Virus record (IMG/VR): IMGVR_UViG_3300035152_000011
Reading direction: 5' to 3' (one strand)
Length of the DNA stretch: 64,000 bases
From: a virus
This document shows positions 44,620 through 46,282 of the stretch, one piece after another. Position 1 is the first letter of the stretch; each line of letters starts with the position of its first letter. The notes under the pieces were generated by a model. It made no database searches and was not told where the DNA came from. It was given only the letters and a program-made list of their open reading frames with translations. The position numbers and the translations under genes are program-made.

Positions 44620-45018
44620 CGAGGTACTCCCTGGTGCGGTCGATTGCCTTCTGCGAGATGCCGTTCTTCTGCATCGCTTCCTCCCAACCTGGCTTCTCGC
44701 TCACAGCTGGGTAGTTGTCGGCCCAGTCACAACGCGCACCGATCCAGTAGCGGTCCGGGTCGGCGAAGACCTCGATGCCCATCGTCTCGATGTACGGCCG
44801 GGCCTCGCACGGGCTATCGCTACAGCATCCGCAGTTGAACCGGAAGTCCACCTGGTCGGCGCGGTTGTTGACGCTCTTCGAGCAGAAGCGCTTGTTTTTC
44901 CAGCGGTCGGTGCTGACCTTCAGGTCGGGAAACTCGGCCTGGAGCGCGTTGATAAGCTCGGCGTGTTTGGCAGCCTTGCTGGCCTTGTCCAACTCTCTCT
45001 TGACTGTCTCGTCCATTG
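44537..45018 (-). CDS. hypothetical protein
   Basis: Starts MDETVKRELDKA at 45018, 26 nt from the divergent + strand gene; upstream part of the 307-aa track ORF is read-through across a duplicated module. Confidence 0.45.
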
Positions 45019-45043
45019 ATCTCTCCTGTGATAGATTGGGGAC
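44981..45043 (+). promoter_or_regulatory. conserved promoter module copy 1 (TTGACT...TGATAGATT + 7 nt + ATG)
   Basis: About 63-bp segment repeated at 45395-45458 and partly at 45881-45907, each ending TGATAGATTGGGG[N]CATG. Confidence 0.5.
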
Positions 45044-45322
45044 ATGCTTGGAGACGCGTTTCTTACTATTCCCGTCCCGGAAGCGGAGCAGGCGGTAGGC
45101 TCGACGCTGCACGAATTCCTGCCTGCTGGTTCGGGATCGAAGACCGTGACCATGAGCTACCGGCCCGACGAGAGCGGCGGCACGGACATGACCAAACTGC
45201 TCATCTGGATGCGCAGTCCGTTGGAGAAGCCGTCCACCTACATCATCGGCGGTGGAGTCGTCGTGGCGCTGTTGGCCGGCGTGCTCATAGGCCGCGCAAC
45301 CAAACGATGCCAGAGCACCTAG
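45044..45322 (+). CDS. small membrane protein
   Basis: ATG 7 nt after TAGATT (leaderless); C-terminal TM IIGGGVVVALLAGVLIG. Confidence 0.45.
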   Translation: MLGDAFLTIPVPEAEQAVGSTLHEFLPAGSGSKTVTMSYRPDESGGTDMTKLLIWMRSPLEKPSTYIIGGGVVVALLAGVLIGRATKRCQST

Positions 45323-45394
45323 TGACCTACGAGCAGAAGTGGGCGCGTGAACGCCGCCGTCAGTCCCGATCTCTGCGCGCTTTCCGGCCTCGAC

Positions 45395-45458
45395 GGCCTT
45401 GTCCAACTCGTTTTTGACTGTCTCGTCCATTGATCTCTCCTGTGATAGATTGGGGGTC
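45395..45458 (+). promoter_or_regulatory. conserved promoter module copy 2
   Basis: Near-identical to 44981-45043. Confidence 0.5.
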
Positions 45459-45656
45459 ATGGCGAAGAAGAGTAAGAAGGCGTGCTACTGGGTCGGCCGA
45501 CGCGTCGAGCTGCATCCCGGGCTTGACCGTTGGATGATGGGTGACCGCTTCGGTGTGGTTACCAAGTGCGGCCGCGCGGGCAGCGTCTACGTCAAGCTCG
45601 ACAAGTCGGGCAAGACCATGCGCCTCCCCGAAGGCCGCTTCGAGGAGGTCTGGTAG
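45459..45656 (+). CDS. small hypothetical protein
   Basis: MAKKSKKACYWVGRR...; leaderless ATG after module copy 2. Confidence 0.45.
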   Translation: MAKKSKKACYWVGRRVELHPGLDRWMMGDRFGVVTKCGRAGSVYVKLDKSGKTMRLPEGRFEEVW

Positions 45657-45865
45657 TGACCTACGAGCAGAAGTGGACGCGTGAACGTCATCGGCAATCC
45701 CGCTGTGCCGAGTTGCAGAAGCAGCACGCGAAGAACGCAGCGCGGTGCGCGCGGCGCAAGCGTAAGGCTTGTGAAGTCTTGCGCGAAGTCGAACGTGAGG
45801 CAGTCGAGCTGTACTGCGGTTGGGTGAACCCGTCCCGAATTCCCAGACGACGCCTTCCCAGGTAG
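45656..45865 (+). CDS. small hypothetical protein (GTG start)
   Basis: VTYEQKWTRERHRQSRC...; a truncated copy of its 5-prime end (VTYEQKWARERRRQSR) occurs at 45320-45370. Confidence 0.3.
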   Translation: MTYEQKWTRERHRQSRCAELQKQHAKNAARCARRKRKACEVLREVEREAVELYCGWVNPSRIPRRRLPR

Positions 45866-45880
45866 TCATCGCAGCAGCTT

Positions 45881-45907
45881 TGATTGCTCCTGTGATAGAT
45901 TGGGTCC
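45881..45907 (+). promoter_or_regulatory. conserved promoter module copy 3 (partial)
   Basis: TGATTGCTCCTGTGATAGATTGGGTCC immediately before ATG 45908. Confidence 0.45.
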
Positions 45908-46282
45908 ATGCCAAGGAAACGTAGAAAGGCTTCTGTGCGACTAGGTACGATTCCCCGTTCACACCTAGAGATCGACCCCGATGATCGTTGCTGGCGTGAA
46001 GTCGAGAACTATCGCAAGCACGTCTTTGAGCATCTGGAACGTCGTATGCGTGAACAAGCTCGGTTTGCTGAACTGAACGCGCGTGGTGCCCAGAAAGCAG
46101 CAGCTCGTGGCGCCTGCGACACCGCAATGTTTGAGTACGAACAAGCGGCCAACCGTTTTGGTCAGGCATTGGAGGCGTTCGCGTCGTTGCCAGATACCCC
46201 ACGTCAGCGTGTGCCCGAAGGTGCGGCTGGTGCGGTAGCCGAAGCACGACGTGCCGTTGTTCGCTGTTTCCGGTCATCGTAG
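45908..46282 (+). CDS. hypothetical protein
   Basis: 124-aa ORF with leaderless ATG after module copy 3. Confidence 0.45.
   Translation: MPRKRRKASVRLGTIPRSHLEIDPDDRCWREVENYRKHVFEHLERRMREQARFAELNARGAQKAAARGACDTAMFEYEQAANRFGQALEAFASLPDTPRQRVPEGAAGAVAEARRAVVRCFRSS

Follow-up and report, generated by a model that had tools for sequence, protein, structure and literature searches.

Tandem promoter-gene cassettes in an uncultured phage, probably built by recombination between phages with alternative cassettes

Genes and repeats at the locus

The virus record IMGVR_UViG_3300035152_000011 of IMG/VR was analysed over 64,000 nt, and this whole stretch is called the window in the following. Between a conserved gene on its minus strand (gene A) and a PTH2-like gene it contains a short tandem array, in which three copies of a promoter-like module (P1 to P3) each stand in front of a small gene (B, D, and E), and in which the beginnings of gene A and of a further small gene, C, are present a second time as truncated stubs. 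The array is, with good probability, not a simple internal duplication and was built by recombination between phages carrying alternative cassettes. The repeat families given here are the output of a repeat finder, and the gene map was obtained by reading the sequence together with a list of its open reading frames (ORFs). The features are as follows (aa, amino acids; GC3 and GC1, GC content at third and first codon positions):

44537-45016, minus strand: gene A, 159 aa, beginning MDETVKRELDK, with the Shine-Dalgarno sequence AGGAGA; GC3 0.82
45017-45043, plus strand: module P1, -10 hexamer TAGATT at 45032-45037, 6-nt spacer, ATG at 45044
45044-45322, plus strand: gene B, 92 aa, hydrophobic helix at its C-terminus; GC3 0.77
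45322-45417, plus strand: C', stub of gene C, homologous to it over 45320-45368
45369-45370: illegitimate junction C'|A'; C' ends at 45368 and A' starts at 45371
45371-45430, minus strand: A', stub of gene A with its first 20 codons; ATG and Shine-Dalgarno sequence kept
45431-45458, plus strand: module P2, -10 hexamer TAGATT at 45446-45451, 7-nt spacer, ATG at 45459
45459-45656, plus strand: gene D, 65 aa, phrog_5546; GC3 0.86
45656-45865, plus strand: gene C, 69 aa, basic; GTG start overlapping the TAG stop of D (TAGTG); GC3 0.70
45880-45907, plus strand: module P3, -10 hexamer TAGATT at 45896-45901, 6-nt spacer, ATG at 45908
45908-46282, plus strand: gene E, 124 aa; GC3 0.48 and GC1 0.71, with a GC3 of 0.70-0.88 in its neighbours
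44957-45041 and 45371-45455: direct repeat D2, 85 nt, copies 86% identical
45016-45047, 45430-45461, and 45880-45911: repeat D3, 32 nt, the promoter part in three copies
45320-45368 and 45654-45702: repeat D4, 49 nt, start of gene C, copies 88% identical

An initial reading made from the sequence alone had described a segment of the locus as triplicated, and the repeat finder agrees with two long copies and a third, partial one. The coordinates proposed then were right within a few bases, the left repeat reaching about 24 nt further to the left. Repeat D2 comprises the 5' end of gene A, the intergenic region, and the promoter, and has an exact core of 42 nt (45000-45041 is equal to 45414-45455). 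Within the promoter part the 18-mer CTCCTGTGATAGATTGGG is found in three exact copies, at 45023, 45437, and 45887, and nowhere else in the window even if three mismatches are allowed. The chance expectation for this 18-mer is 0.04, and three copies were reached in none of 100 shuffles. A small gene follows each copy as had been noticed, the ATG lying 6-7 nt on, at 45044 (B), 45459 (D), and 45908 (E). It was also seen correctly that MDETVK, with which gene A begins, is encoded on the opposite strand of the segment; the first 20 codons of gene A are part of repeat copy 1. The truncated second start of gene A and the duplicated gene fragment of the sequence-only reading correspond to A' (MDETVKNELDKAVEAGKRAE, 45430-45371) and to C', in which a truncated VTYEQKWARERRRQSRS repeats the start of gene C.

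The two stubs are not exact copies of the genes from which they are named. The first 16 codons of C' are homologous to gene C; after them the sequence is out of context until a stop codon is reached. After the shared first 20 nt, C' and C are only about 80% identical (6 of 30 positions differ). The second copy of the gene A start differs from the resident gene at 12 of 85 positions. Beyond the C'|A' junction the C and A sequences do not show any homology, and there is no similarity between genes B and D either.

The GC3 of genes B, D, and C is like that of resident coding sequence. The composition of gene E is foreign, which suggests that it comes from a different source and was acquired recently; its frame is the only open one of the three plus-strand frames and it has been called by two pipelines. 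Among 5.8 billion proteins neither gene B nor gene E has any homologue but itself. Pfam, PHROGs, and PDB sequence searches with the genes A to E resulted in a single match, that of gene D to phrog_5546, a family of unknown function. Gene A has 16 homologues with a conserved NCGCCxDSPxE motif, and its AlphaFold model, with a predicted local distance difference test score (pLDDT) of 86, does not have a significant Foldseek match in the PDB. The gene A family is widespread and has NCGCCxDSPxE as an invariant motif; 129 relatives were found in metagenome contigs of the Joint Genome Institute (JGI), some of which are longer than 400 kb. The gene C family comprises only three cluster representatives. 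The AlphaFold model of gene C (pLDDT 80) has two helices forming a helical hairpin, and the idea that C is a helix-turn-helix regulator like the anti-CRISPR-associated (Aca) proteins is not supported by this predicted fold (CRISPR, short palindromic repeats that are clustered and regularly interspaced).

Two long ORFs run antisense to the array:

44537-45460, minus strand: antisense ORF of 307 aa, in which A' is in frame with A; GC3 0.60
45360-46277, minus strand: antisense ORF of 305 aa; GC3 0.52

Long antisense ORFs are common at a GC content of 61%, and the GC3 values of 0.60 and 0.52 argue that both are non-coding. A minus-strand fusion protein of A and A' of 307 aa was considered and rejected because GC3 is of the coding type in the frame of gene B (0.77, compared to 0.60).

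The same slot in related phages

Relatives were collected as syntenic contigs reached via homologues of gene A. They are listed with the identity of their gene A to that of the window and with the order of elements at the slot, arrows giving the direction of transcription and P the promoter module:

L003 (57 kb): 74%; A<-P->D-C, then an unrelated gene of 120 aa without a promoter of its own
L007: 75%; A<-P->D-C
L004 and L005: 69%; diverged module with the -10 hexamer TATCCT, an unrelated gene of 72 aa, and directly after it the PTH2-like gene
L090: 73%; module with the -10 hexamer TATGTT, then yet another gene

The comparison of copy numbers that the sequence-only reading had proposed thus gives one promoter copy in all relatives and different genes in the slot. 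At least five unrelated genes are possible behind the module, the synteny giving four different first genes in the relatives and B and E in the window. The cassette is bounded by the ATG on its left and, where gene C is present (it is absent from L004), by the TAG/GTG overlap with gene C on its right. The hypervariable slot as a whole is flanked by two conserved genes, the divergent gene A and the PTH2-like gene:

46274-46591, minus strand: PTH2-like gene, 105 aa, convergent, bordering the variable slot on its right; found in L003 and L004

The match of the latter to the Pfam family of the peptidyl-tRNA hydrolase PTH2 is sub-threshold (E = 0.0015, 19.1 bits with a cut-off of 23). The protein encoded by gene D is identical in L003.

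More distant homologues of gene A, with at most 54% identity, do not have this layout. A scan of IMG/VR for gene A found nothing. Scanning metagenome contigs with a gene A profile gave 80 loci, which are all at most 49% identical and none of which has the divergent promoter layout, and the 25-nt module did not have any match in metagenome contigs. The only IMG/VR contig with an exact copy of the 18-mer is L001 (3924-3941). This match was dismissed as a chance occurrence, the contig being AT-rich and the 18-mer being located inside an unrelated gene of the structural, tail-fibre-like type.

Promoter modules

Each of the three modules has an extended -10 element, TG-A-TAGATT, which is the TANNNT form preceded by TGn. 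A Shine-Dalgarno sequence between the -10 hexamer and the ATG of P1 to P3 was not found, and neither was a -35 element at the proper distance. The window was searched for TANNNT followed 5-8 nt further on by a start codon that opens an ORF of at least 50 codons, and many of the resulting sites share the pattern (G/A)TG(A/G)-TAGNNT-N6-ATG. The form TGR-TAGNNT-N6/7-ATG is present 11 times in the window compared to 0.15 expected occurrences (200 dinucleotide-preserving shuffles with a maximum of 2), and therefore the phage appears to use a promoter class that should yield leaderless mRNAs. P1 to P3 are predicted members of this phage-wide class, their activity being deduced from the pattern. In mycobacteria, leaderless mRNAs are common and are translated efficiently (PMC7148126). 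Other starts of the class in the window are located, for example, at 477, 5647, 51864, and 53725 on the plus strand and at 8252, 49554, 58460, and 59458 on the minus strand. At 59458/59483, two genes of the leaderless class are divergent, their start codons being only 24 nt apart.

P1, P2, and P3 would each start one leaderless transcript. Terminators were not found on the plus strand in the modules, and with none between the modules the output of P1, P2, and P3 should accumulate in the downstream direction. The modules also seem to be unstructured, with folding z-scores between +0.65 and -1.43, of which none is significant, and with an empty Rfam search.

Upstream of its -10 hexamer the module consists of TTGATCTCTCC, which is the complement of the gene A ribosome-binding site together with the bases just before the gene A start, and P1 accordingly carries CTCTCC, the complement of the gene A Shine-Dalgarno sequence. 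A single intergenic stretch of 27 nt thus appears to be constrained on both strands, by the ribosome-binding site of gene A and by the predicted rightward leaderless promoter. Such a constraint on both strands would be the reason why the module is perfectly conserved in relatives whose gene A protein is 25% diverged. P3 retains the complement of the Shine-Dalgarno sequence without a gene A alongside. Therefore, it must have been copied from a junction of gene A and promoter and has not arisen independently. The homology of P3 begins right after the position of the gene A start codon, and 26 nt of it are identical to the A/D intergenic region of L007.

In addition, a palindromic box, GATCG-N6-CGATC (often GATCGYAGCYGCGATC), was found at 19 sites of the window compared to 5.4 expected, among others at 445, 2800, 5613, 13486, 25071, 38877, 42331, 50379, 58480, and 59475. 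It is located just upstream of the -10 hexamer in several leaderless promoters, like an operator. The box is absent at P1 to P3, which may thus differ in their regulation and might, for example, be early promoters that are unregulated.

Authenticity of the tandem array

In the sequence-only reading, a single copy in close relatives would have implied an assembly artefact. All close relatives have a single copy, yet three results argue that the tandem array is real and not an artefact of assembly. The artefact would have to consist of two co-existing strains, A-P-B-C and A-P-D-C, stitched together at the promoter repeat that they share, and an exact repeat of 42 nt is indeed the type of sequence where assemblers err. 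However, strains wrongly connected at the promoter would appear as A-P-D or A-P-B but never with the C'|A' junction, and intact strains do not contain the truncated stubs A' and C'. At the C'|A' junction there is no k-mer shared with either parental continuation of C or A, so that a graph assembler could not have created this junction from a mixture of strains; to cross 45368/45371 real reads are needed. The same order of gene A and the genes of 92, 65, and 115 aa is also given in the JGI gene table for a separate contig of 10,288 bp.

The Logan assembly of SRR11713591 contains unitigs that are 100% identical to 39537-45029 and 45426-46871. For k = 31, a 42-nt repeat predicts that the left unitig ends at 45029 and that the right one starts at 45426, which is exactly what is seen. 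These ends fit a repeat with two left and two right contexts, although taken alone they would fit a mixture of strains as well. Gene B is absent from the Logan protein set and has been found in JGI sources only. Its absence there speaks for the artefact and leaves the support incomplete. With all these data an artefact is extremely improbable.

Origin of the tandem array

The sequence-only view, a recombinational duplication or a cassette system for small genes, is supported by these results. The recombination junction, the stubs, and the cassettes are there, but the array does not appear to be an internal duplication whose copies diverged later. Over 45371-45672, 300 of 302 nt agree with L003, in exact runs of 85 and 215 nt, and the two differences are both located in the spacer between the -10 hexamer and the ATG of P2. 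This L003-like patch spans A', P2, D, and the first 17 nt of gene C, and the rest of the 10 kb of synteny with L003 is only 72-88% identical, the flanks of the patch 72-80% and gene A itself 72%. The near-identity to L003 sets in with the base that follows the junction, 45371, so that A' is 100% identical to L003 5001-5060 and represents an L003-type allele. It ends inside a block of 20 nt, TAGTGACCTACGAGCAGAAG, which is present in all four C alleles, either invariant or with one substitution in L003. From the differences between A' and A and between C' and C, and from copy 2 being the L003 allele, it follows that the copies are alleles of different lineages. Sequence of the L003 type runs to about 45872 and resumes at 46262, P3 and gene E taking the place of the 120-aa gene of L003. 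The truncated stubs A' and C' together with the single-copy order in two relatives mean that the tandem state is derived.

The simplest history that would give this map can be outlined. One illegitimate crossover would connect codon 16 of gene C, from a B-carrying genome, with codon 20 of gene A, from a D-carrying genome, that is, position 47 of C in the order A<-P->B-C with position 60 of A in the order A<-P->D-C. It would leave the stubs C' and A' and a second promoter. Before or after this crossover, homologous exchanges might have happened at the 42-nt promoter core and at the 20-nt start of gene C, and the Sak4-like annealing protein of the phage may have favoured exchanges at such short flanks. 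Single-strand annealing proteins are known to recombine short and diverged sequences and to generate phage mosaicism (PMC5499656, PMC5928155). The third module, P3 with the compositionally foreign gene E, would have replaced the gene that is found at that position in L003. Because P1 and P2 form a direct repeat of 42 nt, the segment B-C'-A' should occasionally be deleted, restoring an L003-like order.

Some points weigh against this history. The junction and the copy number have been judged from assemblies and hold at the assembly level. The slot is covered by about five related contigs, most of which are short. The order and the number of the recombination events are a matter of parsimony. 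It is also conceivable that a small circle integrated into the 42-nt core in the manner of a Campbell-type integration, which would give the same map; circle integration is disfavoured because the contiguous patch of L003 type across A', core, and D would then be a coincidence. Finally, gene A itself has a candidate promoter only. A search turned up TACTCT within the 5' part of gene D and no counterpart to it within gene B. If TACTCT is the promoter of gene A, the A' stub could drive antisense transcription across gene B.

Recombination between phages with alternative cassettes has to be compared with a tandem duplication of a unit of about 414 bp within one genome, followed by divergence or gene conversion. 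Tandem duplications are common mutations, and the units are arranged head-to-tail, 414 nt apart, and have conserved ends. However, genes B and D are dissimilar although their flanks are 86-88% identical, C' and C differ by about 20%, and copy 2 belongs to another lineage right up to the junction base, which would not be expected from gene conversion via an A' stub of 60 nt. Such a duplication is therefore regarded as very unlikely. A dedicated mobility of the cassettes has been considered as well, with the module acting as the site of a site-specific, integron-like recombinase or with small circles like the mini-circles of the promoter early stem-loop (PeSL) cassettes of T4-type phages. Several unrelated ORFans (genes without known homologues) behind one conserved module, bounded exactly at ATG and stop, would fit this explanation, as would the copying of P3 without any part of gene A and the precedent of PeSLs (PMC2839356). 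The order would also result if a circle entered the 42-nt core by Campbell-type integration. Against these points, there are only three copies of the 18-mer, all within 900 bp, the 18-mer does not have inverted-repeat or hairpin character and the modules are unstructured, and no integrase domain was found among the neighbouring genes that were scanned. In addition, the stubs at the junction are the mark of illegitimate and not of site-specific recombination, and one crossover between two genomes is a simpler explanation of the contiguous patch of L003 type. Thus, it is distinctly unlikely that the cassettes have a mobility system of their own.

The 18-mer might also mainly be an operator for a repressor or activator, retained in three copies for the sake of regulation, in which case the duplicated coding fragments would be incidental. 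Its 18 nt are perfect in the three copies and in L003 and L007 despite a divergence of gene A of 25%, and the conservation reaches upstream of the -10 hexamer (TTGATyKCTCC). However, the upstream part is already explained by the Shine-Dalgarno sequence of gene A on the opposite strand, and the motif is not palindromic, whereas other promoters of the class have the palindromic GATCG-N6-CGATC that is missing at these modules. The stubs A' and C' are left unexplained by an operator. Taken as the main explanation it is unlikely, but it is compatible with a history of recombination.

Relation to described systems

Among systems in the literature, the PeSL cassettes come closest. In the T4-type phages, conserved early-promoter modules flank ORFans in hyperplastic regions and mediate their shuffling (PMC2839356, PMC4122927). 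The locus resembles PeSLs in having a short conserved promoter module beside small ORFans that brings a transcription signal along with the gene, and in that differences between close relatives by insertion, deletion, or replacement map to the modules. The differences are that the modules of the locus contain neither a stem-loop nor a terminator, that their promoters are of the extended -10, leaderless type and not full sigma-70 early promoters, that three clustered copies were found in 64 kb of a genome of roughly 143 kb instead of dozens dispersed over the genome, and that one junction is illegitimate, with gene stubs, and does not connect module to module. By analogy, the locus thus seems to work somewhat like PeSLs without being a member of that family.

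Morons are autonomous units of promoter, gene, and terminator inserted between the genes of lambdoid phages. Like morons, B and E are absent from the relatives at this site and each has its own predicted promoter, and the GC3 of gene E of 0.48 deviates. Unlike morons, terminators have not been found, the composition of gene B is normal (GC3 0.77), and the promoter is the resident one in duplicated form and was not imported with the gene. In the loci of anti-CRISPR (acr) and aca genes, a conserved promoter is followed by small genes that vary and then by a small regulator that is conserved. The array has a conserved promoter, an interchangeable small ORFan, and the conserved small basic gene C in common with them, and it is located 1.3 kb from a phage-borne CRISPR-like array. 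However, gene C is predicted to form a two-helix hairpin and not a helix-turn-helix and is not universal among the relatives (missing in L004), and none of the cassettes matches any known family in Pfam or PHROGs apart from the assignment of gene D to phrog_5546, whose function is unknown. Unlike in integrons, there is no integrase among the neighbours scanned, the modules are unstructured, and the junction bears stubs.

Mosaic exchange at conserved sequences of gene boundaries, which annealing proteins promote in tailed phages, is the same process, and the locus is an instance of it (PMC5499656, PMC8136500). A near-identical patch within diverged synteny ends at short conserved sequences at gene boundaries, and a Sak4-like protein is encoded by the phage. 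The locus is therefore ordinary phage mosaicism at a promoter-defined slot, and the current understanding of phage evolution is not changed by it. It provides a clear snapshot of mosaicism, with a junction at which both stubs are still present and with a near-identical patch of 300 nt, and the boundaries of the exchange fall exactly on the promoter and on the overlap of stop and start codons. In addition, a leaderless promoter class has been defined from the sequence for an uncultured phage clade, which should aid gene calling and the prediction of early genes. The genes B, D, and E and their alternatives in the relatives are candidates for host-takeover or counter-defence genes.

Neighbourhood of the array

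Downstream of the slot the following features were found:

47190-47838, plus strand: CRISPR-like array, 29-nt repeat GGCGTCCCCACGCGGGTGTGGAGTGCTGG in about 12 copies, hairpin layout like that of type I-E
47917-49152, plus strand: TnpB/Cas12f-like gene, 411 aa, directly downstream of the CRISPR-like array

The spacers of the CRISPR-like array are 16-35 nt long, and cas genes were not seen nearby. In L003 there are at least eight of these repeats; one or two of the spacers are shared and the others are different. The repeat and one spacer were compared with genome and viral collections without a match, and no spacer target is located within the window. By analogy with published cases, the array may be a phage-borne mini-array or a decoy like the RNA anti-CRISPRs (compare PMC10651486, PMC11656645). 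The TnpB region 47916-48953 shares exact runs of 295, 189, 127, and 108 nt with L003 in surroundings that are 72-88% identical, which suggests that the TnpB element has recently been mobile or exchanged. Mainly because the CRISPR-like array and the recently exchanged TnpB are found 1.3-2 kb away, it can be speculated that the 27-nt module is a portable promoter, an actinophage counterpart of PeSLs that time and again takes up and shuffles ORFans, possibly via small circles, and that the slot is a counter-defence island. This idea is doubtful.

The phage and its probable host

The phage is uncultured. The JGI contigs with gene A reach a length of 143,385 bp, and the genome is roughly 143 kb in size. 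Cultured relatives were not found with a megablast search of 44000-47000 and a tblastn search of gene A against 50,697 phage records. The host is probably an actinobacterium, as weak links at the protein level indicate: the matches of the DNA polymerase are mostly in phages of Mycobacterium, Gordonia, Microbacterium, and Arthrobacter, and gene D shares about 49% identity with hypothetical proteins from mycobacteriophages of the Cluster K type, for example TM4 (gp79) and ZoeJ. A scan of genome contigs for gene A yielded a single distant match, in a metagenome-assembled genome of the Parcubacteria, and no host. The window has a GC content of 58-66% and encodes phage genes of the replication type, namely two helicases, a family-A DNA polymerase, the Sak4-like annealing protein, and an RNase T-like exonuclease. 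Two further features of the window are:

27299-28165: Sak4-like single-stranded DNA annealing protein
42355-42429, minus strand: tRNA-His, anticodon GTG, about 2.5 kb from the cassette locus

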